Shown piece by piece: positions 11,757 to 59,981 of a stretch of DNA of 64,000 nt. A program made the translations under genes and the position numbers. Below the pieces are notes generated by a model, which ran no database searches, was not told the origin of the DNA, and saw only the letters and a program-made list of their open reading frames with translations. The stretch is taken from the IMG/VR virus record IMGVR_UViG_2541047680_000004; one strand, 5' to 3'. The stretch's first letter is position 1. The number at the start of each line of letters is the position of its first letter. Source of the DNA: a virus. Lineage: Duplodnaviria > Heunggongvirae > Uroviricota > Caudoviricetes.

Positions 11757-11769
11757 AAACAAATTGTTT
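11757..11769. promoter_or_regulatory. palindromic operator-like site AAACA-N3-TGTTT
   Basis: aaacaaattgttt 20 bp upstream of the helicase start; same palindrome recurs at 10 sites. Confidence 0.5.
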
Positions 11770-11780
11770 TCTAGTATTAG

Positions 11781-12530
11781 TTAATTAGATAGGGGATCAA
11801 TAAACCGCCGTGCTTCTTCCAGTTCTTCTGGAAAGTGGGCGGAAATAAGGCGCTCTGGAACGATTTCCATTAGCCAGATAGCGGAGAAAATTGCGCGTAT
11901 GCGCTTGCTGCGAGGGATGGTGCGCAAACGCTCCAGAATCCACTCAAAATAGCTTTCCTGAATCGGGTTGAACTGCATGTCTCCCATATGCTTAAAGCTA
12001 ACAAGAGAGTCATCCAGACGGGTTGTTGCGCGTCTGGCTAATTTCTCTTCGAATATCTCAACCAGCTCTGGCTGCCACAAATGCTGTGGGCGCGGCAGCT
12101 TGTCCCACAGCCGTCGTGCAGCTGCGGAAAGAACGGTGGAGATAAAGTAGTCGTATGAGCAGCAATAGCGGTCAGCAAACTGGCGTGCTTTCCATAGAGA
12201 CGTTTTATTGGCAGTCGACAACTCCTGATAAGGCAGGCGTTTTAACCCGGTGGTGAACGGAGCTGTTTCAAAGTGTTCGCGACCGTGCGTCAGCATGATA
12301 TTTGAGTACTGACGTTTGTATGCCTCCGTAAACAGACAGGTGGCCATAAGAGGATGCATGTCTCGGTAATCAAACCACTTCGTCTCGAAGAGTTCAGCCT
12401 CGTCTTTACAGCGCGACAAACCAATGTTTTCAGCGACCCACTTGTCCATAACAGCGGTATTCCACTCTGTCATGAAGTCGTACTGGTCGTTGTCGATGGT
12501 ATCGAAAAAGATTTGGCTCATGTGGCTCAC
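11781..12530 (-). CDS. hypothetical protein (replication module)
   Basis: 249-aa ORF directly upstream of the helicase in the same operon. Confidence 0.45.
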   Translation of the reverse strand: MSHMSQIFFDTIDNDQYDFMTEWNTAVMDKWVAENIGLSRCKDEAELFETKWFDYRDMHPLMATCLFTEAYKRQYSNIMLTHGREHFETAPFTTGLKRLPYQELSTANKTSLWKARQFADRYCCSYDYFISTVLSAAARRLWDKLPRPQHLWQPELVEIFEEKLARRATTRLDDSLVSFKHMGDMQFNPIQESYFEWILERLRTIPRSKRIRAIFSAIWLMEIVPERLISAHFPEELEEARRFIDPLSN

Positions 12531-12637
12531 CTGGTAGGTAGTTACTTACTTATCACGATGGACGGATGATAGCGACTGGTGTCAGTTTTTGGAAGTGAAA
12601 ACGGAAGGGAGTTGTTCTGGTGGTGTCTTTTAAAAGA

Positions 12638-12683
12638 CCTGCTTCCGTATATATTTAATAAGTTACTTATTATTTATATACAG
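12638..12683. repeat. copy 1 of a 43-bp AT-rich repeat (second copy 45937..45984)
   Basis: cctgcttccgtatatatttaataagttacttattatttatata(c)ag, near-identical in both copies, each about 110 bp upstream of an operon start. Confidence 0.7.
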
Positions 12684-12795
12684 AAACAGGCTCCTAATGG
12701 ATACCAAGAACAACATAATTTGACTCCAACTCCAGATGCTATGTCATTGACAGATTTATCAAGGGAGATCATGTTAGAATTAGTGTTTTAGCCTC

Positions 12796-13869
12796 GTGGA
12801 TATTGTCACCATGCGCATGAATAGACTTCCAGGATATGGCCTTCCCGAACTGGCTTTTTGGCCTCAGCCTAAATATGAACGGAATAAATGGTCGATGTTC
12901 TGTCTGAAACTCCGTAATGATGGAACCCTTGCTTGGTATCGGCGATATGTTGATCGTGGTATGCCAAACCACGCTGTTGATGACGACTACGATAACTATC
13001 CTGAAGCAAGAAAAGCGGCATTAGAGCTGAATAAAAACGTGAGCTTTGACATTGAAAAACTTCCTCTATCTATGTTTCAAAAGAAGTCATTGCGTTTGAA
13101 AGTTGACAAAGCACTCAAAGCCAAATCACGTCTCATGGATGAAGAGTATATAATGCTCAACGAAGCAATTAAGGCACACGCCAACGATCCGCGAGTGACA
13201 TTAAATGAGTTAATAATTAACCCAGATTACGAAACTTTGCGTCAACCCCTTTTTGACGTGCTAAGCGAGATGCCTTACTTACATTTTGTTTTTCTTCCCA
13301 AATTCCAAGTTTCACTTCAACTCGTTGCTCCTAACACTTGGGAATGTTCATATAACAACAAAGCTAAGACAGCGAAGATCTGCTACCAAGAACGCATAGC
13401 CAGAGGTTTTGGTTTATCAGGTGCTGCACATTGGGGAAAAACAAAAGCGACTATTCGCTCAATGCTTCTGCCGCGTGCTAACCGGTTACTGCAACTCGCC
13501 AGCGTAAAAAGAATGCTGGATGAAGCTCTCAGGAATGGGCAAAAGGTACTGGTTGTTGGCAACTTTGTTTTCTGGTTTGAGGACAAAAATCAGGTAGGTT
13601 GGAGTGTTAAAGTTGCTAGCGAAAGCGAAACCACCTCAAGAGGCAATACGCTCTGGAAAGAAGGAACTATCATTTCAAAAAATCACGGTCGAATTGTCGT
13701 GCTGCCGTATACAAAAGAAAACGGTAAACATGTAAAAGGTTATACCAAGAATGCCCCTAACGACGGCAATGCAATTCCTAGACATAAGGATGAGTATGTT
13801 GAGTTGCCCTTTGAAATTTTGGATGGTGACTTGATGTTCAGTCTGTTCGGTGAGCTTAACTACGAATAG
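12796..13869 (+). CDS. hypothetical protein (plus-strand orphan)
   Basis: 357-aa ORF with bidirectional hairpin terminator at 13,880-13,920. Confidence 0.45.
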   Translation: MDIVTMRMNRLPGYGLPELAFWPQPKYERNKWSMFCLKLRNDGTLAWYRRYVDRGMPNHAVDDDYDNYPEARKAALELNKNVSFDIEKLPLSMFQKKSLRLKVDKALKAKSRLMDEEYIMLNEAIKAHANDPRVTLNELIINPDYETLRQPLFDVLSEMPYLHFVFLPKFQVSLQLVAPNTWECSYNNKAKTAKICYQERIARGFGLSGAAHWGKTKATIRSMLLPRANRLLQLASVKRMLDEALRNGQKVLVVGNFVFWFEDKNQVGWSVKVASESETTSRGNTLWKEGTIISKNHGRIVVLPYTKENGKHVKGYTKNAPNDGNAIPRHKDEYVELPFEILDGDLMFSLFGELNYE

Positions 13870-13929
13870 CTTTCATAGAACGAAATATTTCTAAGGCTGT
13901 CCAATGCAGACCAGCCTTAGAGATTTATA

Positions 13930-14289
13930 TCAACCTTTCTTCATTAACTCGCGTTTAATTTCATCGGTACGCATCGTGACATCGGCAGCAGTGATCGCCT
14001 CGTTCAGCTTCACGATGTCCTCGATTTCCTGCGGTGTCTTCTCCGCAAGATGGAAAATAGCAGCACGAATCACATCAGAGCGGGTGAATTTCTCGAAGCG
14101 AGGGATGAACTTCATCATCTCCAGCAGTTCGAAGTATTCGTCTTCCAGTGACATTGTGCGGCTTTTAATTTTCTCTTTGCCACGAGTCGGGCGTCCCTGT
14201 GGTCTGACTGGTTGGCGCAAAGGAGTTGTGTTCTTAGCCGGTGCATCAGGCTCTTTGCGCTTTGCTAGGTCACCCATTTTCATGGACAT
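13930..14289 (-). CDS. putative ribbon-helix-helix centromere-binding protein (ParG-like)
   Basis: Small protein translationally coupled to parA; predicted beta-strand/helix/helix segment SRTMSLEDEYFELLEMM...RSDVIRAAIFHLAEK. Confidence 0.4.
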   Translation of the reverse strand: MSMKMGDLAKRKEPDAPAKNTTPLRQPVRPQGRPTRGKEKIKSRTMSLEDEYFELLEMMKFIPRFEKFTRSDVIRAAIFHLAEKTPQEIEDIVKLNEAITAADVTMRTDEIKRELMKKG

Positions 14290-14992: not shown

Positions 14993-15005
14993 AAACAACT
15001 TGTTT
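14993..15005. promoter_or_regulatory. palindromic operator-like site AAACA-N3-TGTTT upstream of parA
   Basis: aaacaacttgttt 36 bp upstream of parA start. Confidence 0.5.
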
Positions 15006-23476: not shown

Positions 23477-23567
23477 GTTGAATATGCTCCTTGATTTGGT
23501 GGGCTATCCTTGCCCCCATTAAGTGTGTACCTACTTATTTTTACCGATATAAATATTTTTTTCTACA

Positions 23568-30409: not shown

Positions 30410-30458
30410 CCTGTCAGCGCCACAATGATAGTAAATTAGTACTTACTTATCCAGATAC

Positions 30459-36903: not shown

Positions 36904-36941
36904 TCATTGCGCTAATAGTAAGTATATACTTACTAATTGAG

Positions 36942-39526: not shown

Positions 39527-40447
39527 TTATTCCTGTGCAGCAGTGACTTCTACGGTCGCTGTCGCTTTGTGGCTACCATCTTGGGTAGTAACCTCGATTG
39601 TGGCAGTACCAGCCGCAACGCCAGTTACAACACCGGTTTCGCTATCCACCGTTGCAAACTCGGTATTTTTGGATTCCCAAGTAACGGTTTTATTTGTTGC
39701 TCCTGCCGGCTCGACATTTGCGGACAGCTGAACAGTTTTGTTTGCCTCAACGGTTGTGCTATTTGGGTCGATTTCGACGCCGGTAACAGCCACAACAGGC
39801 GCAGTTACTTCCACCGTTGCAGTTGCCTTTTTGCTGCCATCTTGGGAAACGATCTCAATCGTCGCAGTGCCAACTTCTACACCAGTAACGTTCCCGCTCT
39901 GGTCTACCGTTGCCTTATCTTCATTTTTGGAAGACCAGGTAACAGCCTTATTCGTCGCATTTGACGGCTGAACATTCGCTTTCAGACTGACTGATTTCCC
40001 TTTCTCAACAGACGTTGATTCTGGCGTTACCGTTACGGATTGAACGGCTACCGGATTTACGGTGACTTCCACTGAAGCGGAAAGCTGGGTTTCCTGATCA
40101 GTTGCAGTAATTTTTACTTTGCCTGGTGCTACGCCAGTTACTAATCCAGTGCCGTTAACGGTTGCAATTTGGTCATTTGCTGACTTCCAGGTGAATGAAC
40201 TGGCACTCTTACCCATACTAATACCTGCACTAAGTTGAACAGTTTTCCCAACCAAAACTGACGGTGAAGCCGGGGTTATGTTTACGGATTGGGAGAGGGG
40301 AACCGCCTGCAAACAAGCAGATAGCTGACTTTGTTGCCGCTCGGTTAAAGGTTCATCGGAGATAGAATTGGTAAATCCGGCACGGCACATATGCCCCGTA
40401 AAATCCGAAAATGCCTCTTCCGTAATCTTCATCTTTTGTTCTGGCAT
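39527..40447 (-). CDS. Ig-like (three Big_2 domains) protein, putative head decoration
   Basis: Three repeats of ..TV.P.S.TV..GKTVQLSA.V.P..ATNK.VTW.S.N...ATVD..G.VTGV..G.ATI.. directly downstream of major capsid gene. Confidence 0.6.
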   Translation of the reverse strand: MPEQKMKITEEAFSDFTGHMCRAGFTNSISDEPLTERQQSQLSACLQAVPLSQSVNITPASPSVLVGKTVQLSAGISMGKSASSFTWKSANDQIATVNGTGLVTGVAPGKVKITATDQETQLSASVEVTVNPVAVQSVTVTPESTSVEKGKSVSLKANVQPSNATNKAVTWSSKNEDKATVDQSGNVTGVEVGTATIEIVSQDGSKKATATVEVTAPVVAVTGVEIDPNSTTVEANKTVQLSANVEPAGATNKTVTWESKNTEFATVDSETGVVTGVAAGTATIEVTTQDGSHKATATVEVTAAQE

Positions 40448-40520
40448 TTCTCGCTCCTACAAAAAGGGTGGGCGTATAGCCCACCCTTTAACATAGATAA
40501 CTACTTATCTACTACACTGA

Positions 40521-41396
40521 TTAAATTTTTACATTGGTCAGTGCAGCGATAGCCTTATCATGCTTATTCGCCAGAGAGCAGTACCACTTCACACGGGTAC
40601 GTACTGCGTCTTTGTTCTGTACAGTACCAATGTTTTCAACAACGATACCTGCGTTATCGCCGCCATACAGACCAGTAACGCCGTTCTCTTCTGACAGATG
40701 CAGGCAGTAGATGCTTGCTTTGCCAGCATCGGTCGGGATGAAGTCGTTGATGATGAACGGAACGCCGTTATGACACAGCATCGGACGACCAAAGTTCTCC
40801 ATCATGATTTCAGACGGACCTACGTTTACTGTACGCAGCAGCGCACGATAAGCACGCAGGTGCTCTGAACGCATCATGATGCAGTCAGCACCAAGATCTT
40901 TCACCGCATCGACCAGTTCGTCGAACATAGAGAAAGTCATAGATGCACCGGCGATATCGATCTTCTGATCTGCGTGCATCAGGCGTGGAATGCCGTCAAA
41001 CGCCTTGTTGTTGGAGCTGGAGTCACCCAAAATCAGGTTGCGACGGAACGCACGAGCCAGACCTTTAACTTTCTGACGAACCTGAATAGCCAACTGGTTG
41101 TTGGTGTCGGCCATAGTGGTCGCCAGGAATTTATCAACGTCTACGTCACCAGCCAGAATACGCAGTTTCGCAACGCATTCTTCGAAGGTTGCTGCACCTT
41201 CAGGGATGGTGTCGTTAACGTCGATGAAGGTAGCTTCACTCAGCGTTTTTTCACGGTTGTACAGATATGCCTTTGAATTAATTTTCATAAAAGGCAGGAT
41301 GGCAAACAGGTCATCGCGATCGATGATAGTTTCGATCACACCCTGTTCAAGTTCGTTGTTAGACAGCTTTTCAGCTTCTTCACGCAGTAATGGCAT
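40521..41396 (-). CDS. major capsid protein
   Basis: 291-aa ORF between scaffold and decoration genes; strong terminator hairpin after stop. Confidence 0.7.
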   Translation of the reverse strand: MPLLREEAEKLSNNELEQGVIETIIDRDDLFAILPFMKINSKAYLYNREKTLSEATFIDVNDTIPEGAATFEECVAKLRILAGDVDVDKFLATTMADTNNQLAIQVRQKVKGLARAFRRNLILGDSSSNNKAFDGIPRLMHADQKIDIAGASMTFSMFDELVDAVKDLGADCIMMRSEHLRAYRALLRTVNVGPSEIMMENFGRPMLCHNGVPFIINDFIPTDAGKASIYCLHLSEENGVTGLYGGDNAGIVVENIGTVQNKDAVRTRVKWYCSLANKHDKAIAALTNVKI

Positions 41397-41421
41397 CTAT
41401 CAATTCCCTTTGATTTAGATG

Positions 41422-42309
41422 TTACTTAAGTCCAATTTTCCCCAGACCGGAGGCCAACTTATCCATAGTCGACTTGTTCTTCGGTTGGGATATTGTGTAG
41501 GTCGATTTGGAATGTGAGCCTACACCCTGCTTGGCTTCGCTACGCATCAATGCGTCAGCTTCCGGATCTGCCCGCACAATGCGTTCAATCGCGGATTCAA
41601 ACGGCAACGGCTTACCTTCACCGTCAACCAGAACAGCTCGTTCTTTGTGACCTGCCGGTTTGTCATAACCCACTACGCTACCGTCTTCACCCACTTCAAA
41701 ATGAGAACCGTAGATCACGCGGGCTTTTGCCGGGGTCATCAGAACTTTGTCACGTAGGAAGAGAGAGTTACTGAAGGAAGCGCCCACGGTCATCTCGACT
41801 AATTGAGATTTCAGTGATGCGTTTTCACTTTCCAGTGCTGCATAACGTTCGTCACGCTGTGCCAGCTCTGCCTGGTGTGCTTCGATCATCTGTTTTTTAA
41901 CAGCATCGAACTCACCACGACGCTCCAGTTCAGCTTGCTCCGCCTCACGACGTGCGTTTTCTGCGGCCTGTTCAGCTTCTAAAAGCTGGCGAGCACGAGC
42001 CGGATCGATATCACCGTACTGAGCAAGCTGATCGGCCAATGTGCGCTCTTTCTCTTTGCGCTTCATGTTCTCCTTCAGCAGTTCAGCACCAGCTTTCTTG
42101 GTTTTACGAAGTTCGGCCAGTAACTCTTCCTGAGTCATGCCAGCGTATTCGTCATCGCCCTTCGGCTGCTCTTTTTGTTCACCCTGTTTGTCAGGATCTT
42201 GTGTACTCTGCTCATTATCAGCAGCTACACCGCCAGCGCCTCCACGCTCATGCGCTTCAGCGACATCCATCAGACCACGACGGGCCAAAAGCATTTGCCA
42301 CAGATTCAT
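41422..42309 (-). CDS. scaffolding protein
   Basis: 295 aa, highly charged helical/coiled-coil (EAEQAAENARREAEQAELERR), between portal and capsid. Confidence 0.6.
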   Translation of the reverse strand: MNLWQMLLARRGLMDVAEAHERGGAGGVAADNEQSTQDPDKQGEQKEQPKGDDEYAGMTQEELLAELRKTKKAGAELLKENMKRKEKERTLADQLAQYGDIDPARARQLLEAEQAAENARREAEQAELERRGEFDAVKKQMIEAHQAELAQRDERYAALESENASLKSQLVEMTVGASFSNSLFLRDKVLMTPAKARVIYGSHFEVGEDGSVVGYDKPAGHKERAVLVDGEGKPLPFESAIERIVRADPEADALMRSEAKQGVGSHSKSTYTISQPKNKSTMDKLASGLGKIGLK

Positions 42310-42330
42310 AAAAATTCCTTTTGTTACTTA

Positions 42331-43905
42331 TCACTCGTTCTCTTGAGTAGATGAGTCCCCATTCCCTCGGGGTTGATCTTGCCCTCTTTCTTGGGCTGCA
42401 CCACGATCATAAGTAAGTGCTGACTTATTTTCAAGGGTATTTAGATCATTTTTTGGAGGAAAATTCAAGAGATCTTTATCAAATTCCTTTTTCATCGCCT
42501 CAGTAATGTTCGGGAAAATCTTCTCAATAAGCATTTCCATCTGGTGACGACGTACAGAGTCCGGTGCCTGAAGTAATGACAGTTTCTCGGCAACAGAAAA
42601 TTCATCAGTAAGGCCACGAATATCGAAACTTTCTGGATACGCAATTAAAGAGTGGTCTTCGTCCAGATCTACCCCCATCCATTTCGCAACCAGTAGCATG
42701 ATTTGGCGTTCAGCCCTTTCCAGACGCTCTGCTTTTGTGACAAGCAAGCTATTTACACGCTGGAAGTCATACATTTTTGCGGCACCAGATGAGTTATCGA
42801 TTCCCTGTGCGTTGTCCTGCTTCGTTCGCTCACCAGCTACACCAACTGAATGGTAGATTTCGTTAATCACCGTCTTAATCGTAGTGATGATCATCTGAGC
42901 TTGTTTCGGGTCTGGTGACAGATAAAACGGCTGGTTTCCACCTTCAGAATCGTAGGTGAAGACTCGCTTTGTGCCCATTTCAAGCACTTTAGTGTGGTTT
43001 TCATCACCAGGTAAAAGCGACTGTACTGGTATAGCCAACTGGCTAAATGTCTGATCCTGAATAATGGCATCAAGGTTTGACAGATAGTTTGCAACCGCAC
43101 GATCAAGATAAGCGATATCATCGATCAACGATGGGCTGAAATACGGTGATTCACTTTCTCCAATACAATCAACAGGAAACACAGGAACTACGCTGAGATT
43201 ATGCTCACCGCTATCCTCTAAAATAACTTTTGCCTGACGGCGACCTGCTCCACCAGCGCCCTTCTTCACTTCCTCACGGAACAGATACCACTCGTTTTGT
43301 GTCCACAGACGATAACGTTGGTATTCCTGACCTGTAGAAGTAAAAGGATCTGCGTCATCGCGAGCGACTTCCACAATTAACGCCCATAACATATTCCCGT
43401 CGTCGTCCCATGCCACATCCAGCATTTGCTGAGGTGAAATCCAGTAGGCGTAGGCGCGAGCATCTTTCTTTTTCTCGTCAGCTACTGACTCAACATCACC
43501 ACTCATCGTGCTATCGACAACAACCCATATGCGACCGTAAATAGACGACTGCAAATCAATAGCGGCCATAAATGAGTCAATAGAGGCATTCTGGCGAGTC
43601 GCACGTTTCCAGAAATTGCGGATCTGCTCTGGTGCCTCTTCGATATTTCTATGAATGTCTTCTTTAAAGAGATATTTGTTGATGAGGTTTACCACCTCAC
43701 GAGTGTGGTTGAAGCGATAAGCACGTTCAACTCGCTCCTTAAACTCCTGATCTCCCTCTTTAAAGTAACGAAAGATATTGTCTGTAAACCAACCACGCCC
43801 GCCAGCGTAAGTGCTGGCGAGGAAGTCCCAATGTTCTTTTTTCTTTTCGTATTCCGGGTGGCGTCGCGCCACCAGATCCTTAATTTGTTTGTCGTTCAAT
43901 TCCAT
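42331..43905 (-). CDS. portal protein
   Basis: 524 aa directly downstream of terminase large subunit. Confidence 0.65.
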   Translation of the reverse strand: MELNDKQIKDLVARRHPEYEKKKEHWDFLASTYAGGRGWFTDNIFRYFKEGDQEFKERVERAYRFNHTREVVNLINKYLFKEDIHRNIEEAPEQIRNFWKRATRQNASIDSFMAAIDLQSSIYGRIWVVVDSTMSGDVESVADEKKKDARAYAYWISPQQMLDVAWDDDGNMLWALIVEVARDDADPFTSTGQEYQRYRLWTQNEWYLFREEVKKGAGGAGRRQAKVILEDSGEHNLSVVPVFPVDCIGESESPYFSPSLIDDIAYLDRAVANYLSNLDAIIQDQTFSQLAIPVQSLLPGDENHTKVLEMGTKRVFTYDSEGGNQPFYLSPDPKQAQMIITTIKTVINEIYHSVGVAGERTKQDNAQGIDNSSGAAKMYDFQRVNSLLVTKAERLERAERQIMLLVAKWMGVDLDEDHSLIAYPESFDIRGLTDEFSVAEKLSLLQAPDSVRRHQMEMLIEKIFPNITEAMKKEFDKDLLNFPPKNDLNTLENKSALTYDRGAAQERGQDQPRGNGDSSTQENE

Positions 43906-45820: not shown

Positions 45821-45860
45821 AGATCCCTCTAAAACACACAGAGCGCGTCCATGCGCTCTA

Positions 45861-45898
45861 AAACAACTTGTTTACTGCATCTGCTAACCAACTTGTTT
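45861..45898. promoter_or_regulatory. two tandem AAACA-N3-TGTTT operator-like palindromes upstream of terminase operon
   Basis: aaacaacttgttt (45861-45873) and aaccaacttgttt (45886-45898), 40-80 bp upstream of TerS start. Confidence 0.5.
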
Positions 45899-46015: not shown

Positions 46016-46282
46016 TTACATCACCAGTAACTTCGCTTTGGCTCGACCTAAAGTGGTTAACCCAAGAGTTCGGCGGTGATAGCGATTGTCACTGCGTTGG
46101 CGCGTATGCCCTTTCTCCACCAGCCCCTTTTTTATCAGAGCGCGAATTGAGAACTGGATACTTTGCTTGGTTGTCTTGTACGGCAAAACTTCAAGCAATT
46201 CGTCCAGGTCAAGTAGATGACCTCGCTCATAACCGAGATTGAGCGTTTTGATGATGTCCTTTTGTTTATCGGTTAACGTCAT
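46016..46282 (-). CDS. small winged-helix-like protein
   Basis: 88 aa, basic C-terminus; helix-turn-helix-like segment. Confidence 0.35.
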   Translation of the reverse strand: MTLTDKQKDIIKTLNLGYERGHLLDLDELLEVLPYKTTKQSIQFSIRALIKKGLVEKGHTRQRSDNRYHRRTLGLTTLGRAKAKLLVM

Positions 46283-46291: not shown

Positions 46292-47182
46292 TTATGCCGG
46301 TAAAGCAATTTCTAACGGTTTATCCAAAGGTTGTTTGTCGAATGCCAGCAGTGGCAGCGTGTCAGGCAGTCGACGGCCAAAGTCAGGGTTTCGGTACACA
46401 CCATACAACGGAGACGTAAAGCTCAGGTTGTGAATGTCCTTGAGCAGCTTCACAATGCTGGCCTCGTCCACCAGACTGTCGGCAATGTCCTGAATCGTCG
46501 TGCCACGATTCCGCCCAGCTTTTGCCAGGGAACTGTTCTTGTGGTAGTCCGCCACCAGATCACGCAGTGCACGGCGACGACGAGACTCGCTCATTGCGAA
46601 CAATTCTTTGACGATCGCCTCGTTATCACCCGGGTCGGAACGGAAATGGCGCTGGAATACACGCAGTGCACTTTCATAGCTCTTCGGTCGCTCAGGGCGG
46701 ATGAACTTAAACCCTGCTTTCATGGCGAAGGGATTGTATTTGCTCATCGAGGACTGGATCTCAATGATTGGCCGGTCATGCATCCTGCTAACCAGGTTAA
46801 TCATTCGATAAGAGACGCCTACGCCACGATACTGAGTATCCACAACTGAGCGACTGATCACCGCAAAGTTGTTATTCACGTACCGACCCCAGTACTGGTT
46901 AGCCACGGTGGTATTAGTGGTTGGTTTCAACTTAGGAAACATGCGGTGGCGAGGTGCCAGCAGTAGTTTCGGGTAAGCCATAACCACGACGCCCACCAGA
47001 CGGTCATCAAGTTCGCAGCGATAGTAAGTTGGCGCGAAAGGTTTGCCGTCTGTTTTGTAGTGAAGCGACTTAAGAGCGTGCCAGTCCTCTACAGTTCCCT
47101 TTGTGACAGTCATTCGCTCCAGAAAGTCCAGATGACGCGGAAACTCTTCAGGGCGGTAGCGTTTAATGATGATGTCCGTCAT
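46292..47182 (-). CDS. GNAT-fold acetyltransferase-like protein
   Basis: CoA-binding-type motif VVDTQYRGVGVSYRMINLV (R-G-x-G-x-S) in a 296-aa protein. Confidence 0.4.
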   Translation of the reverse strand: MTDIIIKRYRPEEFPRHLDFLERMTVTKGTVEDWHALKSLHYKTDGKPFAPTYYRCELDDRLVGVVVMAYPKLLLAPRHRMFPKLKPTTNTTVANQYWGRYVNNNFAVISRSVVDTQYRGVGVSYRMINLVSRMHDRPIIEIQSSMSKYNPFAMKAGFKFIRPERPKSYESALRVFQRHFRSDPGDNEAIVKELFAMSESRRRRALRDLVADYHKNSSLAKAGRNRGTTIQDIADSLVDEASIVKLLKDIHNLSFTSPLYGVYRNPDFGRRLPDTLPLLAFDKQPLDKPLEIALPA

Positions 47183-47844
47183 AAATGAACCTCATCATGA
47201 CTACCATTGTGATATTCCACCTTCACGCGTTCTTTGTAGTGCTTGGTGATCTGCATATCCGGGCGCAGCGCGTTCTTCAGGTCTTCGTGAGTCGTCGCCA
47301 CCATTACCGTCGCACCAACCTTTCGAGCGGCACGCTGGAGGTTAGATGCCACAACCTGAGCGGTTACACGGTCTAGAACAGCACCGAACTCGTCAGCAGC
47401 CCACACTTTAGCGCCTGACTCAATCAGTTTGGCAATCTTGAGACGATATTTCTGACCGTCTGACATTTCAGAAGGCTTGCGAACAAACAGATATGCATCG
47501 TTCAGACCAGCCATAGATAACAACCCAAGCGCATCGCTGGTCGTTTTGCCCAACTGATCGATGACGTTAACCTCATTATCGAAGGTAAAATCATCGATGG
47601 AGGCTACAGACAGCCCTTCATCCTTCATCTGTCGTTGCAACTCGCGCAGCACAACGGATTTGCCGGAACCGGATTGGCCGGTGATGTACACCACATCGCC
47701 CTGCTTCACTTCCAGCTCCAGATTGTCGTAAAGCGTCCACTCTTTTTCGTCCAGGCCAAGCCCGAACGACTCAGCGATTTCCAACGTGCGCGTGGTTTTA
47801 TTTACGCGTGTCTGAAACGATACGTTGATGATGTATTTGCTCAT
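47179..47844 (-). CDS. stand-alone ABC-type ATPase (nucleotide-binding domain only)
   Basis: Walker A GQSGSGKS, signature-like MSDGQKYR, Walker B VWAADEF, H-loop TTHED. Confidence 0.65.
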   Translation of the reverse strand: MSKYIINVSFQTRVNKTTRTLEIAESFGLGLDEKEWTLYDNLELEVKQGDVVYITGQSGSGKSVVLRELQRQMKDEGLSVASIDDFTFDNEVNVIDQLGKTTSDALGLLSMAGLNDAYLFVRKPSEMSDGQKYRLKIAKLIESGAKVWAADEFGAVLDRVTAQVVASNLQRAARKVGATVMVATTHEDLKNALRPDMQITKHYKERVKVEYHNGSHDEVHL

Positions 47845-48542
47845 ACAGCCATCTCCCCGGAAGAGATCTTCTCCGCATATGCCACAAATGCGTCTACCCC
47901 GCTTTCTCCCGTCATTTCTTCCATGTGGGCAAGCAAATCACCAACAACAATGGCAGAGCCAGCAGGAAGCGTTTTAAAGCCCAATACGTCGACAACACGT
48001 ACTTCTTCCGCTGCAACTTCACGACTGATCTCGGTGTGTTCATCCTTCTGTCGTTTAGTTTCTTCGCCAAGATCGATAACTAGCGAGTCGGTGTCCATTT
48101 CTTCTGTCATGCTGCCAACGAGAACATTCAACTCACGCTCTTCAAAGCCGAAAACCTCGATATCGTCCAGAACAAGCGACTCAAGCTCTTTCTGTAGCTT
48201 AATTGCATCGTAATCAATGCTGGCAAGTCGGTTATCTTCAAGGCGCTTCGCACGAACCTCGTCATCACTGAGATCATCGCGAACAATAACCGGTACGCGC
48301 TCAAGTCCAGCAAAAATTGCAGCCTCACGGCGGCCGTGGCCAGTAATAATTACGTCGTTCTTATCGACCGTAATTGGCTGGTCAAATCCGCGCTTTTTAA
48401 TGGCTGCGGCTAGATCTCGGATCTGCTGTTCATCATGCTTTTTGGCATTCATCTCATAGGGAATAAGATCTGCCGGGTCGCGATATACGATTTCAAACTT
48501 TTTGGTCATTACATACGCTCCTTGTAGTAGTCGACCAGCCAC
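47841..48542 (-). CDS. ParB N-terminal domain (ParB/Srx-like) protein
   Basis: ITGHGRREAA motif resembling the ParB GxxRxxA box. Confidence 0.6.
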   Translation of the reverse strand: MAGRLLQGAYVMTKKFEIVYRDPADLIPYEMNAKKHDEQQIRDLAAAIKKRGFDQPITVDKNDVIITGHGRREAAIFAGLERVPVIVRDDLSDDEVRAKRLEDNRLASIDYDAIKLQKELESLVLDDIEVFGFEERELNVLVGSMTEEMDTDSLVIDLGEETKRQKDEHTEISREVAAEEVRVVDVLGFKTLPAGSAIVVGDLLAHMEEMTGESGVDAFVAYAEKISSGEMAV

Positions 48543-49207
48543 ACCAGAGCCTCACCAGCGTTCTCCATTTCATTACCGGTGTTAATAGCCTGCTCTTTGA
48601 TGATGTTTTTTATGGTTTCTGCAACACGATCTGACGCATCGAAAGTTACTTTGAAGCGCATGGTCTGATGTTCCGCCCCCACACGTTCGGTTTTCTCTCG
48701 TTTGTCGGTATCGACAGGCTCATCACTACCACGAGACAACGCCTCCAGTGCTTCAAGGTCGATTGCCGCCTCTTTTGCTAAAACCATCGAGATTTCGTCG
48801 TCATACGGGGCGATTTCAGACAGTTGATAGTCAAGTTCTGACTGAATTTCTTCAATGAAGCGTTGCAATGCGATTTGGTCGTCTTCACCGTATCGCTCGT
48901 TGTCCACCAGTGACATCTGTTTAGCTACGACATCGCTAATTTTGCCCACAGAAAGCACTGGAACCGTTGAAATTCCTTGCTCAATAGCGGCACGCCAGCG
49001 ATGTTCGCCGCCGAGGATTTCAAAAAATCCATCTTCAAGTTCACGAGCCAAAATTGGCTTAAAAAAGCCCAATTTTTCGATAGAACCTTTCAGTTTTTCA
49101 AAATTCTGCGCACCAACCGAATTGGTGTTCCAGGTATTCGGGCGAAGGTTGGCAACATCAACCTGCAAAATCGTGATTTTTACATCCATTTTATTGCTAC
49201 AATCCAC
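48509..49207 (-). CDS. ParB N-terminal domain (ParB/Srx-like) protein
   Basis: ILGGEHRWRAA motif resembling the ParB GxxRxxA box. Confidence 0.6.
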   Translation of the reverse strand: MDCSNKMDVKITILQVDVANLRPNTWNTNSVGAQNFEKLKGSIEKLGFFKPILARELEDGFFEILGGEHRWRAAIEQGISTVPVLSVGKISDVVAKQMSLVDNERYGEDDQIALQRFIEEIQSELDYQLSEIAPYDDEISMVLAKEAAIDLEALEALSRGSDEPVDTDKREKTERVGAEHQTMRFKVTFDASDRVAETIKNIIKEQAINTGNEMENAGEALVWLVDYYKERM

Positions 49208-49271
49208 TAAGTAATCACTTACTTATTATAATAGCCAAATAACATACAAAAGGCACTAAGGAAAGAGGTTT

Positions 49272-50833: not shown

Positions 50834-51112
50834 ATGAGTGAAAAGAAAACAACTTACTGTCAGGTAGCATTGTCTGATAAGGCCAATGACAAACTTGGAA
50901 AGTTTCAAGTGAAACTAAAAGAAAAAAATATCAAAATGTCTAAGGCTGAAGTCATAAATACCATTCTGGAACAATTGACAATGGCCGACTTTGACAAGGT
51001 TATATCTTCTGTCGGGGCTTCCGCTAAGACTCGTGAGAAAATCATGCGTATCTATGAGAACTCTAATATGACAAAGGAAGATCTCGAAACGCTATTAAGC
51101 AGATTAAAATAA
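50834..51112 (+). CDS. small ribbon-helix-helix-like protein
   Basis: 92 aa; beta-strand/helix/helix pattern TYCQVALSDKANDKLGKF...SKAEVINTILEQL. Confidence 0.35.
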   Translation: MSEKKTTYCQVALSDKANDKLGKFQVKLKEKNIKMSKAEVINTILEQLTMADFDKVISSVGASAKTREKIMRIYENSNMTKEDLETLLSRLK

Positions 51113-54495: not shown

Positions 54496-54978
54496 TTACA
54501 CGCCATCAAGGATGTGGATGCGGTTGCTTGCGTATACATTCAGCATAAAGTTAGCGCAAAACAGTTTCCATGTATCAACGCCAGCGGTATACGTAATGTT
54601 TTTGCATTTAATCGCATTGTTGGCGATCCGCATCCCCTGCGATACTGCTTCATCGTCGGAAAATTTGAACGACGATTGAGTTTTAATCCAGACAGAAATC
54701 TGCGTAGCAAACTCAATCAGCTTAGACTGGCAGAATCGCCCGGAGCGTACCGGGAAGACGAACGTTCCGAATCCAGAATTAACCACATATGCTTTCTCAA
54801 ATACCCTCGAGTAACGACGATTGCCAATGATGTCGCGTGCAATAATGCATTTTTCTTGTGCTGACAGTTCTACCGTCTCATTGTCGCGCCATGCACCAAG
54901 TACTCGTTTTTCAATGTCAGAGAACGTTACAGCGATATTGCCATGTGCGGGTGCGTTTACAGTAGCGATAAAATTCAT
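54496..54978 (-). CDS. hypothetical protein (small-gene cassette 1)
   Basis: 160-aa ORF; operator palindrome at 54,999-55,011 upstream. Confidence 0.45.
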   Translation of the reverse strand: MNFIATVNAPAHGNIAVTFSDIEKRVLGAWRDNETVELSAQEKCIIARDIIGNRRYSRVFEKAYVVNSGFGTFVFPVRSGRFCQSKLIEFATQISVWIKTQSSFKFSDDEAVSQGMRIANNAIKCKNITYTAGVDTWKLFCANFMLNVYASNRIHILDGV

Positions 54979-55328
54979 GATTAATTCCTTATCGTAAATA
55001 ACAAATTGTTTTCTTGTTGGTGTTAATTATCGTTGTACGAATAAGGCGTCAAAGTGGAAAGTTGCGGTAGCCGGACGGGAACAGGTGGGTTTGTCGGTTG
55101 CCTGGAGGTAAGAGGTTGGTGTTTTTAGCCTGCGGGAAACAGGATGGTCATTTAAGGCCACCAATGCTGATGGCCTTAATAATTATCGACCGATTACGCT
55201 AAGGATCTTTTCCTCAACTGATTTGTTGTTGCGACTAAACTGCCTTGCGTATCTGATGACAGAAGAGGCGTTTTGCTTTCTGACCATCTCGGCTCTTTCC
55301 TTCAGGCGTTTCTTGAAATCGCCCATAT

Positions 55329-55703
55329 TTACCACCAGGCGCAGAAGGTCAGTCTGTTATTGTGAAAGTCGTGGTTCCTGATCAGGTCTTCCACAAGTTT
55401 TTTCAGCTTATCCACGTCATGCCAGTAACCTTCGTCGTACTCCTGACTGCCGAAGAAAAAACCTTCCCGAGTAGGCAAGTACTCTTCGCAATTGCTTTCG
55501 TTTATGTGCATCAAATGAGCTTTCAGAAGACAAATGTCATTCATCGTTAATTCTAAAAGCTCACAATTTTCGACTTCACCTACGTTGCGCTCCATCCACC
55601 CAACGAGCGCATTGAACTTACGGAAGTAAGCAACCTGCTTTCTGGATGCCTCGTTATTCAGATCGTTTTTAGGCTGTGTCTCGATATAGATATCAAGTCC
55701 CAT
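55329..55703 (-). CDS. hypothetical protein (small-gene cassette 2)
   Basis: ORF with AAGGAA RBS before ATG at 55,703; operator-like palindrome at 55,763-55,775. Confidence 0.4.
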   Translation of the reverse strand: MGLDIYIETQPKNDLNNEASRKQVAYFRKFNALVGWMERNVGEVENCELLELTMNDICLLKAHLMHINESNCEEYLPTREGFFFGSQEYDEGYWHDVDKLKKLVEDLIRNHDFHNNRLTFCAWW

Positions 55704-55820
55704 GATGGTTTCCTTATTAAGTTGCTTCAGTGAAATCATTTTCACAAATCAGATAAGGCAGAAAACAAATTGTTATCGGGCATAATAAAATGGCGCGGTT
55801 TACGCGCCATTTAAAGAGGA

Positions 55821-56216: not shown

Positions 56217-56342
56217 TTCACTCTCCGTAGTGTATTGGTTATTTTTATATTCTATGATCGTAAGTATGTACTTACAATACAAAAAAGCCCCGTAAGGATG
56301 GCGGGGCTGTCGTACTGTCGACTAATTACCACTTGCACATTA

Positions 56343-56654
56343 TCAGGCTATTGCCATCACTGATGCTCTCTGAATTTCTTGCTGGGCCACGCGGTTAACT
56401 TCCATCAAGGCCAGTTCGAGCTGATGTTCCGGCCACATTCTTTGAAACGCCATCCAGCCTTTTCCACGCTGGCGACGAACATTCATTACATAACGAGTAA
56501 AGGTGTTTTTATCGAAAGACACCGCTGTTTCACGGAACAGACGAATAGAGGTTCCATTGGCAACGATGTCCAGCAAAGTTAATTGAGCAACCAGCGCAGG
56601 CTTCTCTTTTCTCTTCTGGTCTTTGTCCAGACCAAGAACCAATGATTTTTTCAT
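56343..56654 (-). CDS. hypothetical protein, possible DNA-binding regulator (small-gene cassette 4)
   Basis: ATG at 56,654 lies 12 bp downstream of palindrome 56,666-56,678; terminator hairpin after stop. Confidence 0.45.
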   Translation of the reverse strand: MKKSLVLGLDKDQKRKEKPALVAQLTLLDIVANGTSIRLFRETAVSFDKNTFTRYVMNVRRQRGKGWMAFQRMWPEHQLELALMEVNRVAQQEIQRASVMAIA

Positions 56655-56665
56655 CACAACTCCGT

Positions 56666-56678
56666 AAACAACTTGTTT
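56666..56678. promoter_or_regulatory. palindromic operator-like site AAACA-N3-TGTTT
   Basis: aaacaacttgttt immediately upstream of gene start 56,654. Confidence 0.5.
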
Positions 56679-56808
56679 TCTCAATGGCGTAAATAATACC
56701 AGTAAGAAAACGGCTACAAAGCATAATGATCAGGTGTATGAGCGATATGCAGGTTCTTCCCTGCGGCTACAGATGAAGTTAAGCCAGCATTGCTGGCTTT
56801 GGTTGGGT

Positions 56809-57138
56809 TTACTCGAATACTTCAAGAAACTCCTGAACGTCCCAATGCTGGACGAGGTGAAGATAGACCTTAGAAATCACGTCATTTTCGCTATCGCATG
56901 TGAAGTAGTACTTCTGGCTGCGGTTGTATGTGTCCACACAAAATTCGCTCATATCCATAAAGTCAGCATCTTCACCCATGTCGCAAATCATCAAAGCAGG
57001 TGCATCATCACGAGTCATCAGCTCCAGCACCCATCTTGAATTAATCAGAGTGGAAGACCAACCTTCCAGCTCATAGAACTGGTCAAACTCTTTTTGAGTT
57101 AATTTCTTGATTTGGTTGATGTCGATATTTGCAAACAT
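56809..57138 (-). CDS. small acidic protein (small-gene cassette 5)
   Basis: 109 aa with about 22 Asp/Glu; ATG at 57,138 is 13 bp downstream of palindrome 57,151-57,163. Confidence 0.45.
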   Translation of the reverse strand: MFANIDINQIKKLTQKEFDQFYELEGWSSTLINSRWVLELMTRDDAPALMICDMGEDADFMDMSEFCVDTYNRSQKYYFTCDSENDVISKVYLHLVQHWDVQEFLEVFE

Positions 57139-57150
57139 AAAGCAATCCTT

Positions 57151-57163
57151 AAACAACATGTTT
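57151..57163. promoter_or_regulatory. palindromic operator-like site AAACA-N3-TGTTT
   Basis: aaacaacatgttt. Confidence 0.5.
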
Positions 57164-57499
57164 TCTTGATGGTGTTATTATCGCAATAACGCACAGGCGA
57201 AAAAGGATTTTATTCCGGTGAATATGGTTTTGGCAGTGAGTTTTCAGGTTCAGTACCGAGTATACTTTTTACATTATTCTGATTTAGTGGCCGAAGGTGG
57301 CTGGTGGGCAGAATAATCCTCTCCCCGAAAACCTACTGAAATCGATTGTGACCCGTTGGCTGTCTGGCACAATTACGCTGTAGCTGGGCATTCAGAGGGA
57401 ATCCAGCGGTAAGCAAGTCCGCCTACGTGAGCGCCTCTCTTCTTCCCGCACATTACAGGTGGGTAGCCGCAACTCTCCCTCTCGCTATACCGGTACGCC

Positions 57500-57635
57500 G
57501 CCGTTCCTGAACCGGCATCGAGCCTTTTCCCGAAATCCACACAGGCAACTCGACCGTTTCCCTGAAAACCTCCAGCCGTTCCCCGAAGGCAACCCAGCCT
57601 TTTCTGTAGCGGGATGCAACCTTTTCCCTGTATGG
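57500..57635. repeat. iteron cluster B (6 direct repeats, about 22-bp period, consensus CCGTTTCCCGAAA)
   Basis: gccgttcctgaacc, gccttttcccgaaa, accgtttccctgaaaa, gccgttccccgaagg, gccttttctgtagc, accttttccctgta at about 57,501, 57,524, 57,555, 57,576, 57,598, 57,621. Confidence 0.65.
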
Positions 57636-57749
57636 ACCGAAGGCTGACCGTAGGGGTTTTACGGGGGATAAAATCAGGAGTTGAATAAATACGAAAAAGG
57701 AGGCGACACCCCTCCTTCCCTCCCCACTTATACATACCTGGCTTCTTCG

Positions 57750-58600
57750 CTATACATGTTGTGTTTTCTTCGTGTTTTATCTGTCTCAACCTCTCTATAG
57801 GCGTTAATGCTCACTCCTTCCAGAACCTTCTATACGGCGACTATTTCTGTTGGTGAATTGGGTGTGTTGTTCTCTCTGTCGGTGTATGTGGTTTCGTTCG
57901 TTTTGCGGTGGTTCTTCTATGGGGTGTTCTCGTCGTTTTGGTGATTGTTCTTCTCCGTGTATGGAGTAATGGCAGGTGGGCGATTCCTTTCGTTATTGTG
58001 TTTGAGTTGTTTGTCTGGAGTGTGTGAAAGGCTTTTGTAGTTATTCGTGTATTGGGTAATGGCGTTTCCCGTGATTGTTATGTTTCGTGTCTTTTGGGAT
58101 TGAGAGAAACCTTGCGGTTACAGGCTTCGTTGGGGTTTCAGTGATTCTGGTGTTTCTTCGCTGTTTGGGTAATGGCGTGTCGTGGGTATCGCGCGTATGA
58201 ATGTTTTCGGATTGCCTGTGAAAGTTAGGTTGGTTGTCCGGTAGCCTGGGGAGAAGAGGTGGGTCTTTTCGGTAGCCTGCCATAAAGAGGTTGGTTGTTT
58301 TGGGTAATGGTATATGTGTTATTTAGTTGTTTTGTTATGCCTGAAAATAAGTTGTTTATATGGTTGTGTAACGCAACGGGAGCGATTTTGAGCGTGTGTT
58401 TTTGTTGGTAGTGTGTTGAGTCGTCTGTGGTGAAAATTGGACGCTGTGGCGCTATCTGCTGCGTAGAATTACGGGTATAAGAAGTGATGTGTGATAACGT
58501 CAATTTTTTAGACCAAATCGGGAGAAAGCGTTGATGTTTCGTTGATCTGTTATTTAGTTGTTTTCTTATTGGTATAAACAACCATAACCTATTGATATTT
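57750..58600. repeat. GT-skewed non-coding tract with short dispersed repeats
   Basis: Plus strand almost devoid of C-runs, rich in G/T; repeated tgggtaatgg (x4), gttatttagttgtttt (x2), ggtagcctg...agaggttgg (also at 55,060-55,130). Confidence 0.55.
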
Positions 58601-58700
58601 AATGATGTGATTGCTGGTATGGGAGGGGAGTAGTGGCGATCAACGGGTTCTTATAGAAAAGAATCAAATTGTGACCGCCATTATCAATAAGTTGCAACCG

Positions 58701-59306
58701 TTAGTTGTTCAGATAAACATTTGGAACACGGACGTAGAACTTACTGTTACCGGTAAGTTCCAGAGTAATGTTAATGTCATTACCATTGTCTAGTGTAGCC
58801 GTCGCTCTATAGAACTTATCAGTTACCTTTTCGTCAATATTAACCTTGATGCATTTCGCCGCAGTAGAACCATTATGCTCTTTCAGAATAGTTGTCACGA
58901 CAGGACATGCGGCTTCCTCAATGACGCCATCTTCCTGTTTCGGTATTACAATGAAGAATACGTAAGCCAGCAAGGTAACGACTATAATAAATGGCAGTCT
59001 ACTGCTCTTTGTTATAGTCGCACGCTTCCATAGGTAGATTGGCATGAAAACTATTCCCCATAAAATAGCAGGTGGCTCATAGCCGGATTCCGAAATCGCC
59101 ATTCTGTCAGCCACTAATAATCCGATGGCAGCTAAACTTCCAATTAATACAGCATAATTTGCATACTCTTCGTTCGGAATGCCGAAGCAAATTGGAATAA
59201 AAGCTAAAATCCACGCATAAGTGTTATTCAAAGGTTTTTTTTGTTGGTTATTGGTTTCCATCACATCCATCTCATCACTTAAATTACTTGTATATATTAT
59301 CAACAT
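58701..59306 (-). CDS. hypothetical integral membrane protein
   Basis: About 4 predicted TM helices then soluble C-terminal domain; 201 aa. Confidence 0.45.
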   Translation of the reverse strand: MLIIYTSNLSDEMDVMETNNQQKKPLNNTYAWILAFIPICFGIPNEEYANYAVLIGSLAAIGLLVADRMAISESGYEPPAILWGIVFMPIYLWKRATITKSSRLPFIIVVTLLAYVFFIVIPKQEDGVIEEAACPVVTTILKEHNGSTAAKCIKVNIDEKVTDKFYRATATLDNGNDINITLELTGNSKFYVRVPNVYLNN

Positions 59307-59382
59307 TTAACAAACATAACCTAAACACACAGCAGATATAGCATTACAAACTCATTGTGAAAACCATTATCATAGGAAACGA

Positions 59383-59568
59383 TTAGATGAGATGGTCTAA
59401 TTCATCATCTATCATGGCTTTGACGCTGGAGTCATTCACTCCATATTTATTTATGAGCTGTTTCAGCTCTGGCGAAAACTGAAGGTAGATATCGTGAGCG
59501 TTTTTCACTGTAGGTTCAACGCCACGCATTTCAAGCGCCTTTAGTAGATATGAGTCTTCTTTAAGCAT
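59383..59568 (-). CDS. hypothetical small protein
   Basis: 61-aa ORF. Confidence 0.3.
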   Translation of the reverse strand: MLKEDSYLLKALEMRGVEPTVKNAHDIYLQFSPELKQLINKYGVNDSSVKAMIDDELDHLI

Positions 59569-59604
59569 AAATTCTCCGTTATCTAGTATGAAGCGATTGC
59601 CGGA

Positions 59605-59904
59605 TTACCATTGCCAGCACTCAAGCCCTTCAACGACCGGTGCGCCACAATCAAAATGTACAGAGTCAAAGCCTACATCAAGTACTTTCTGAATGTTCGC
59701 AATCGCGCCCTCGGATATACCATATCGACGCAACTCATCTATCCAGTCATCGTCCTGTAACCCGGCGTGGACAATGCAACCGTACTCAATTTGTGAAACC
59801 CAATCCAGCTCATTGCTTGCGATCATGAATCGGCGAGCATCTTCCTCTGATGTATGAGATGAGCTGATCAATGCCACCTGGTAGGCTTGGGTAATGTTCA
59901 ACAT
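59605..59904 (-). CDS. hypothetical protein
   Basis: ORF with ATG at 59,904 located 14 bp downstream of operator palindrome 59,918-59,930. Confidence 0.4.
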   Translation of the reverse strand: MLNITQAYQVALISSSHTSEEDARRFMIASNELDWVSQIEYGCIVHAGLQDDDWIDELRRYGISEGAIANIQKVLDVGFDSVHFDCGAPVVEGLECWQW

Positions 59905-59917
59905 TTCAACCACTCCA

Positions 59918-59981
59918 AAACAAGTTGTTTTCTTATGTGGTTTATTATCTCCATCAACAAAAGGCAGAAAACATATTGTTT
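59918..59981. promoter_or_regulatory. two AAACA-N3-TGTTT operator-like palindromes at the right edge of the element
   Basis: aaacaagttgttt (59,918-59,930) and aaacatattgttt (59,969-59,981). Confidence 0.5.

Follow-up and report, generated by a model that had tools for sequence, protein, structure and literature searches.

Which regulator would read a short palindrome that recurs before the replication, partition, packaging and accessory genes of one mobile element, and in which state of the element would it act? The question arises from a 64,000-nucleotide stretch (hereafter the window, IMG/VR record IMGVR_UViG_2541047680_000004) of a virus of the Caudoviricetes, in which an earlier note had described copies of AAACA-N3-TGTTT before at least ten genes or operons and had proposed a single dimeric regulator controlling the element globally. 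From 44.0 to 60.5 kb, the window is 96-98% identical to the E. coli phage-plasmids CMS-2020a, PhiR41_1 and Cyrano (= pLF82) and about 80-82% identical to Klebsiella phage-plasmids and the Salmonella phage SSU5; it is an SSU5-like phage-plasmid of E. coli, with 97-98% identity to Cyrano/pLF82. The palindrome is embedded in promoters that are off in the plasmid state, the parA operon excepted, and it probably serves as the operator of a dimeric repressor encoded by the element itself, a reading given a probability of about 65% whichever element-encoded protein is the binder.

SSU5-like phage-plasmids are common in Enterobacteriaceae, and homologues of the proteins considered here occur in about 800 PLSDB plasmids, including pHCM2 of S. 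Typhi, some of them also in pMT1 of Y. pestis. The element falls into the SSU5 supercommunity according to the grouping in PMC11652158, and resistance genes are present in some SSU5-like phage-plasmids (PMC9600943). A 2024 review contains nothing on regulation in the SSU5-like group, and no description of the motif was found in the searchable literature, covered by full-text searches and the same review. The window is oriented opposite to the Cyrano record, with most genes on the minus strand and about 10% of its length non-coding.

The A-box and its place in the promoter

In its 5-3-5 form, AAACANNNTGTTT, the palindrome has 7 exact matches in the window against 0.13 expected from shuffles, and 16 against 4.15 when up to one mismatch is allowed. 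The form AAACAA-N-TTGTTT (AAACAANTTGTTT), 13 bp long and here named the A-box, is found at 11 sites with at most one mismatch against 0.56 expected, and none of 100 shuffles reached 11. These sites are the ten listed in the earlier note, all of whose coordinates are right, together with one at 58345 and no others. The real unit of the motif is this 6-1-6 palindrome, which is sharper than the 5-3-5 form. In an unbiased count of all 5+gap+5 palindromes in the window and a Klebsiella relative, AAACA-3-TGTTT / AACAA-1-TTGTT ranked first. Ten A-boxes fall in the non-coding part of the window, the seeming gene overlap of the boxes at 56666 and 57151 being an artefact of over-long ORF (open reading frame) calls, and all are co-oriented with genes of the minus strand. 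On that strand AGA directly precedes the box at 7 of the 11 sites, which corresponds to the trailing TTCT noticed earlier on the plus strand. The site at 58345, which lies inside an ORF and has neither the AGA prefix nor a −10 context, is probably not functional. A scan of viral contigs for AAGAAAACAANTTGTTT gave, among the matches listed, mostly single occurrences that are probably due to chance.

The position of the box is set with respect to the promoter (Table 1). Read on the gene strand, the promoter-proximal block consists of a weak −35-like cTTgacGCC, about 16 nt, a −10-like GATAAT or TAAT, 13 nt (tACACCAAcAAGA) and the box, and several of these promoters carry the TG of an extended −10 (TGnGATAAT). 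The −10-like element ends exactly 13 nt before the box in a set of 42 boxes with the AGA prefix, drawn from four genomes, whereas the distance from the box to the start codon varies between 11 and 40 nt, indicating that the box is positioned by the promoter and not by the ribosome-binding site. The earlier description had put the box 12-40 bp upstream of the gene; the range of 11-40 nt holds for the promoter-proximal boxes, and the outer members of the two pairs stand 64-65 nt from the start codon. The box lies downstream of the −10-like element and not upstream of the promoter. A consensus sigma-70 promoter scan of 54.0-60.2 kb found no canonical −35/−10 pair at the A-boxes, so that the promoter model rests on conservation and both promoters and transcription starts are predicted. 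If transcription starts at the usual distance of about 7 nt after the −10 hexamer, which is assumed here, the box would cover about +8 to +20.

A second box is present at some of the promoters. In four genomes, six promoters have it exactly 51 bp upstream of the first, where it overlaps the −35. The pair at the terS promoter has another arrangement, a spacing of 25 bp shared by the window, Cyrano and SSU5. Since the terS promoter of Klebsiella pJN2-26 has a single box, the pair arose by a 25-bp duplication. Between these boxes and the ribosome-binding site of terS stands a hairpin that is conserved in SSU5 and pJN2-26; a 43-nt segment of the leader folds with −14.7 kcal/mol (z −2.3). The hairpin resembles an intrinsic terminator, which suggests that the packaging genes would also need antitermination or read-through.

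Comparison of orthologous promoters from three to four lineages separated the box from its surroundings. The 12 specified positions of the A-box are 94% identical, against 63% for the −10 octamer, 67% for the linker, 48-53% for the outer flanks and only 38% for the central base. Conserved half-sites around a free centre are the trace that a dimeric protein contacting both halves of a duplex DNA site is expected to leave, and by this pattern the half-sites are under purifying selection. The same boxes stand at orthologous promoters in Cyrano, SSU5 and pJN2-26, and the motif is unchanged between E. coli, Salmonella and Klebsiella elements that are about 80% identical overall. The earlier picture of a dyad-symmetric site shared by replication (helicase), partition (parA), packaging (terS) and accessory-cassette promoters is borne out and extended by this evidence of selection; such a site is the expected product of a dimeric DNA-binding regulator.

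In Cyrano, 17 promoter-proximal boxes are spread over about 15 promoters, namely those of terS, parA, the helicase, a CobT-like gene, CYRAN_58, nrdB, a tciA-like gene, CYRAN_87, CYRAN_93 and the cassette genes CYRAN_101-111. SSU5 has 21, including boxes before its Ant and methylase genes, 15 of them in the last 33 kb (1.7 expected), and pJN2-26 has 13 in 40 kb (1.7 expected). The helicase box has orthologues at Cyrano 32080, SSU5 34385, position 21454 of the K. ozaenae plasmid L009 and position 7654 of L139. The parA box is the most widely conserved, occurring at the parA promoter in SSU5, L009, L012-L016 and L139. All box-bearing elements with a known host come from Enterobacteriaceae (Escherichia, Salmonella, Klebsiella, Kluyvera, Buttiauxella).

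In more distant relatives the palindrome fades. The A-box is not enriched in the Pectobacterium plasmid Drgb1 (6 against 4.8 expected), and a Moellerella stretch of 35 kb contains no more than two copies, both with one mismatch, of which one stands at parA. The half-site AAGAAAACAA persists at the parA promoter of the Moellerella and Pectobacterium relatives, and the parA box is the sole one whose first half-site survives there. Drgb1 (L008) also keeps a promoter core, ATAATTACAyCAAtAAGAAAA, without the palindrome at three promoters (upstream regions of 797, 7103 and 8366), alongside which L011 6179 is listed as well. These remnants suggest that the promoter core is older than the palindrome and that the parA site is the oldest of the set. 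As a side observation, parA of Drgb1 is split into two ORFs, and an Hfq-like gene precedes its helicase.

Expression was taken from the published RNA-seq of a Cyrano lysogen (Misson et al. 2023, PMC9928086, S1 Table), in which the element background has a median of 9.8. Values for the first genes behind A-boxes range from 5.7 to 25.5 (median about 7.5). Only parA departs from this range, at 49.8, and the next two genes of its operon reach 89 and 55. Thirteen Cyrano genes exceed 80, and the only one behind an A-box is CYRAN_29 of the parA operon. The genes expressed in lysogens have in front of them neither the A-box nor the second palindrome described below, the stated exceptions being the parA operon (A-box) and the gene of an XRE-type repressor (second-family copy). 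Over five RNA-seq conditions, all element genes rise together, so that correlating candidate with target expression would not be discriminating. Apart from that of the parA operon, promoters with an A-box are thus silent while the element is a plasmid. This silence fits a repressor that is present in lysogens and equally an activator that is absent from them. Three features favour repression: the copy common to all these promoters follows the −10, the additional copy found at some of them overlaps the −35, and several extended −10s should work unaided.

Table 1. Coordinates of A-boxes, candidate regulators and second-family palindromes in the window; upstream, downstream, before and after refer to the gene strand.
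Feature	Position	Strand	Context
A-box AAACAATTTGTTT	11757-11769	−	19 nt upstream of DnaB-like helicase start (ORF 10397-11737); −10-like CTAATT 13 nt upstream of box
119-aa RHH-like (ribbon-helix-helix) protein	13930-14289	−	directly after parA; favoured putative A-box binder
Small ParA-type ATPase, 222 aa	14289-14957	−	first gene of the sole A-box operon expressed in lysogens
A-box AAACAAGTTGTTT	14993-15005	−	35 nt upstream of parA; TAGGCTAT + 13 nt before box
Conserved hairpin AGAGCGC-N6-GCGCTCT, then GTGTGTTTT	45831-45859	−	terS leader
Second terS A-box	45861-45873	−	exactly 25 bp downstream of first; 40 nt before terS ATG (45820)
A-box AAACAAGTTGGTT (1 mismatch), terS promoter-proximal	45886-45898	−	13 nt downstream of −10-like CCTAAT
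88-aa MarR-like winged-helix protein	46016-46282	−	just upstream of terS promoter; rival candidate binder
92-aa RHH-like protein	50834-51112	+	after UvsW-like helicase; rival candidate binder
A-box AAACAATTTGTTA (1 mismatch)	54999-55011	−	20 nt upstream of cassette gene 54496-54978; −35-like TTTGAC/TTGACG, GATAAT, 13 nt, then box
A-box TAACAATTTGTTT (1 mismatch)	55763-55775	−	17 nt upstream of cassette gene 55329-55745; directly behind terminator of preceding gene; TCTGCCTT after box, as in upstream-type copies
A-box AAACAAGTTGTTT	56666-56678	−	11 nt upstream of cassette gene 56343-56654; abuts GGAG; −10-like TATTAT
A-box AAACATGTTGTTT	57151-57163	−	12 nt upstream of cassette gene 56809-57138; extended −10 TGCGATAAT + 13 nt before box
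A-box-like AAACAACTTATTT (1 mismatch)	58345-58357	−	inside ORF 58225-58581
A-box AAACAACTTGTTT, promoter-proximal	59918-59930	−	13 nt upstream of DUF5983 gene 59605-59904; GATAAT + 13 nt before
A-box AAACAATATGTTT, upstream copy of same promoter as 59918	59969-59981	−	exactly 51 bp from proximal box; overlaps −35 position
Second-family palindromes	3756-3769, 7272-7285, 12535-12548, 30436-30449, 36919-36932, 49208-49221, 56261-56274
Weaker second-family copies	near 23520, 42410, 43917, 45955

A probable dimeric repressor and its candidates

In the repressor model, the A-box would be a double-stranded-DNA operator common to about ten promoters in the window and about 15 per genome. The promoters would be of the sigma-70 type, and a dimer occupying the region of about +8 to +20 would keep RNA polymerase from forming the open complex or from escaping the promoter. 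Promoters under tight control would carry the second box, whose distance of 51 bp amounts to about five helical turns, and the two dimers of such a pair could bracket RNA polymerase and bind cooperatively. The second box of terS stands 25 bp downstream of the first and has the terminator-like hairpin after it. With the 119-aa protein as binder, the model would run further: it would autoregulate the par operon, the same protein would silence the helicase, terS and accessory-cassette promoters during plasmid life, and the dispersed boxes might double as its partition sites.

The 119-aa protein is the favoured one of three candidate binders named earlier. Its gene overlaps the parA stop codon, the pairing with ParA is kept in distant relatives, and the 222-aa ParA has P-loop ATPase domains only, without an N-terminal DNA-binding domain. 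In small-ParA systems the partner protein is normally the repressor of the operon, and no other repeat or palindrome that could act as par operator was found in the region upstream of parA. Lysogens express the protein; its window and SSU5 versions are 97% identical, and in about 740 plasmids the identity is at least 89%. Its basic arm PQGRPTRGK, putative strand IKSRTMSxEDE and second helix FTRSDVIRAAI are invariant in clades that are 48% identical overall, and clades with such a divergent protein keep the A-box at parA and the helicase. A scan of the genome collection with the profile of the protein found six loci, all with the same box. The same profile recovered only 18 relatives, all of one narrow family, from 1.84 billion representatives, and this search gave no bridge to the ParG, omega or Arc families. 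Nothing meaningful came from searching PDB sequences with this family profile or with the single 119-aa, 88-aa and 92-aa proteins.

Several points weigh against this assignment and the model built on it. One repressor acting everywhere requires a stronger core promoter or weaker binding at its own, more expressed, operon; the lifting of repression for lytic growth is unexplained; and a partition protein alone holding a sigma-70 promoter would be an odd control for terS. No lineage pairs a changed box with a changed 119-aa protein, so the comparison offers no real covariation test, and the Moellerella and Pectobacterium relatives have lost the second half-site although their proteins show no more than a slight change in the putative strand (TVSM for TMSL). 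In addition, small-ParA partners usually bind arrays of short repeats beside the par operon, whereas parA here has a single palindrome, no adjacent repeat-array centromere and its next box 3.2 kb away at the helicase. Taken together with the ParA partner as binder, the repressor-operator mechanism stays tentative, at somewhat less than even odds. The fullest version, in which this partner is a genome-wide silencer that autoregulates parA, holds about 15 promoters off through single 13-bp palindromes spread over 100 kb and perhaps uses them jointly as centromere, is doubtful. If it were true, a single protein would link segregation to the decision between plasmid life and phage growth in a family of about 800 sequenced plasmids, among them pHCM2 of S. 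Typhi. For whichever binder, the A-box gives a testable map of one regulon, with its member promoters, the operator position and a short list of binders.

The same operator, centred near +14 and in some promoters doubled by a box at −35, might be read by another protein of the element: the 92-aa RHH-like protein, the XRE-type repressor, the 88-aa winged-helix protein or a 71-aa protein at 4217-4432. All the evidence for an operator applies equally here, and the alternative, rather unlikely, ranks next after the ParA partner. The 92-aa protein, also among the earlier candidates, stands at 114 in lysogens, but its identity is no more than 52-63% between lineages whose boxes are identical, and its putative DNA-reading strand varies between them (TYCQVAL, IHCQVQL, ISCQVKL). 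The XRE-type repressor, encoded beside the integrase in Cyrano (CYRAN_45) and outside the window, reaches 96 in lysogens and, like the 92-aa protein, is found in about 800 related plasmids. Against it, the protein is 56-66% identical among groups, and its gene has no A-box near; in Cyrano a perfect GGTAAGTGCTTACC of the second palindrome family lies 32 bp upstream. The SSU5 annotation has no integrase or adjacent XRE-type regulator, though the 21 A-boxes are kept. The 88-aa protein, encoded beside the double box of terS, is a confidently predicted winged-helix DNA binder (AF2 pLDDT 79.5; Foldseek TM 0.72-0.78 to MepR, MarR and APE0880a), but it remains at background in lysogens and its recognition helix is unchanged in the box-less Drgb1. 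It is a candidate regulator of late genes, with a target other than the A-box.

The comparison of SSU5 was with Cyrano 40268-43038, and homologues of this XRE-type regulator in the roughly 800 plasmids usually lie beside an integrase. SSU5 may be a repressor-less derivative that keeps both palindrome families.

Other proteins were considered as binders and set aside. The cassette protein at 56343-56654, third of the earlier candidates, shows no signature of DNA binding, and its expression in lysogens does not exceed background. A regulon of the KorB/ParB type was rejected, the two ParB_N proteins of the element (47841-49207) being at background in lysogens. The S24 protein at 63395-63784 is UmuD'-like and has no DNA-binding domain.

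Two of these rejected candidates belong to loci worth recording. The ParB_N proteins are encoded in an operon at 46292-49207 (minus strand) together with an ABC-type ATPase and a 296-aa protein without Pfam match, the winged-helix gene being the last; the operon is conserved from E. coli to Pectobacterium relatives, silent in lysogens and distinct from the ParA/119-aa pair. The S24 gene (minus strand) encodes 129 aa with a Peptidase_S24 domain only and starts at the equivalent of the UmuD cleavage site (GFPSPAADY...), like a pre-cleaved UmuD'. No umuC was noticed beside it within the window. Its Cyrano orthologue, at 148 against the background of 9.8, is among the most expressed genes in lysogens and is higher still in macrophages.

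Another explanation of the lysogen silence is that the A-box belongs to a positively controlled class of promoters, which a lytic-only factor such as the winged-helix protein would activate. Most A-box promoters lack a good −35 and go uncalled by the consensus scan, the entire 35 bp that span the −10 and the box show the conservation of a dedicated promoter, the promoter core persists without the palindrome in Drgb1, and the upstream copies of these lysogen-silent genes are centred near −38, the position of a class II activator. However, the universal copy at about +14 is in an unusual place for a sigma-70 activator, the −38 copy exists in a minority of promoters, and extended −10s of the form TGnGATAAT should be active unaided. 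Moreover, lysogens express parA, which has a box, although the candidate activator does not rise above background in them. Activation is accordingly improbable, and repression remains the preferred account.

The repressor could in principle come from the host, as a transcription factor or nucleoid protein of Enterobacteriaceae that the element has recruited. The box is invariant in elements of Escherichia, Salmonella, Klebsiella, Kluyvera and Buttiauxella and missing from those of Pectobacterium and Moellerella, which belong to other families, but this loss is equally explained by the divergence of the element itself. The box sequences fit none of the consensus sequences of LexA (CTGT-N8-ACAG), CRP (TGTGA-N6-TCACA), Fur (GATAATGATAATCATTATC) and DnaA (TTATCCACA), in agreement with the earlier note. 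IHF sites differ as well, the KdgR site AAACA-N-TGTTT differs in spacing, and PhoP sites are direct repeats. To our knowledge, no E. coli host regulator has an A-box-like operator, and a host binder is quite improbable.

Action in the mRNA leader, as a hairpin or as a site for a translational repressor or RNase, is very improbable. Transcripts probably include the promoter-proximal copies, some of which directly adjoin the Shine-Dalgarno sequence; nevertheless, the hairpin that an A-box could form is negligible (−0.7 to −1.8 kcal/mol, z about 0) and has no Rfam match, the spacing is fixed to the −10 and variable to the ribosome-binding site, the upstream copies lie outside the transcript, and conservation of both half-sites around a free centre agrees with a protein dimer on duplex DNA. 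Least probable of all is a palindrome without present function, carried as a passenger in a promoter cassette spread by duplication: the whole promoter block is indeed similar between cassettes and a 25-bp duplication made the second terS box, but the box is far better conserved than the 63-67% of the rest of its block in the orthologous comparison, and it also stands at promoters with unrelated −10 regions (parA, helicase).

A second palindrome family and neighbouring genes

The claim that one regulator controls the element globally is not supported, for a second palindrome family stands at most promoters without an A-box, among them those of head, tail, lysis and DNA-metabolism genes; control is not by one regulator alone. 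This family (TAAGTA-NN-TACTTA / GGTAAG-NN-CTTACC) has 7 copies in the window against 0.08 expected, and the genomes of Cyrano and SSU5 have about 15-40 each, according to the stringency applied. It sits between a −35-like TTGAAA and a −10-like TATGAT or TATAAT. In the distant lineage L139 the second motif is changed and the A-box unchanged, a pattern that fits a fast-evolving immunity repressor for the former and a conserved protein for the latter. The second family is probably the operator of the main immunity repressor.

The A-box flags the small cassette genes, each with its own terminator and putatively box-controlled promoter, as a set that would be co-regulated, and their function is unassigned. 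Searches of Pfam, PHROGs and PADLOC with the cassette proteins and the small candidate regulators gave no function, the sole match being DUF5983 for 59605-59904. At the other end of the window, a 420-aa ORF (894-2156, plus strand) occupies a 36%-GC island next to a tRNA cluster for Ser, Thr, Tyr and Asn (2349-3002, minus strand). Cyrano annotates no gene of this size there, and PADLOC gives a sub-threshold PtuB match only. The ORF may be an inserted accessory or defence gene.

Comparison with known dispersed-operator systems

Set beside systems with scattered operators or partition sites, the element is not a member of any compared family: sequence, position and, where testable, protein class differ. 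The C1 repressor of P1 acts on many operators over a phage-plasmid genome, and its targets include the genes of a DnaB-like helicase (ban), an antirepressor and a methylase. SSU5 likewise has A-boxes before its helicase, Ant and methylase genes. However, C1 operators are 17 bp long and asymmetric and C1 is unrelated to the candidates, whereas the A-box has perfect dyad symmetry over 13 bp and a constant position at +14. The main immunity repressor of P1 may be better matched by the second palindrome family of this element.

KorB of RK2/RP4 is a partition protein that doubles as a global repressor, and its operator OB, a 13-bp palindrome with an odd centre, occurs at about 12 promoter regions. 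The A-box is also an odd-centred 13-bp palindrome at about as many promoters, and a ParA partner as its binder would be a further case of a partition protein serving as global regulator, here in a phage. In contrast, KorB is a helix-turn-helix protein and CTPase of the ParB family, OB has the sequence TTTAGCSGCTAAA and lies at variable distances from promoters, and the protein favoured for the A-box is RHH-like and the partner of a small ParA.

Closer in gene order are omega of pSM19035 and ParG of TP228, strand-helix-helix proteins with a basic N-terminal tail that are encoded after a small ParA and repress their own operon; omega represses several other promoters in addition and is the centromere-binding protein. 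The window has the same succession of a small ParA and a small RHH-like protein. Unlike the arrays of 7-bp heptads bound by omega and the ACTC-box arrays near par bound by ParG, A-boxes are single 13-bp palindromes distributed over more than 100 kb, and searches revealed no sequence or fold similarity of the 119-aa protein to omega or ParG.

For N15, Ravin, Rech and Lane are said to have reported in 2008 that the centromere palindromes of the Sop system are scattered in the control regions of phage genes and help late expression, which ties partition to phage gene expression. If A-boxes are partition sites, both phage-plasmids would have such sites among phage control regions; N15, unlike the window, has an F-like SopAB system (large ParA and ParB family) with four sites, and these aid late expression, as opposed to the silencing of about 15 promoters. 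MatP of E. coli reads matS (GTGAC-RNY-GTCAC), a 13-bp 5-3-5 palindrome, as a dimer through an RHH motif, and the 5-3-5 geometry within the A-box would suit an RHH protein in the same way. MatP is, by contrast, an organiser of the chromosome terminus and no promoter repressor, and the two sequences are unrelated. The A-box is a real, conserved, promoter-embedded element, probably an operator, and resembles known dispersed-operator systems.

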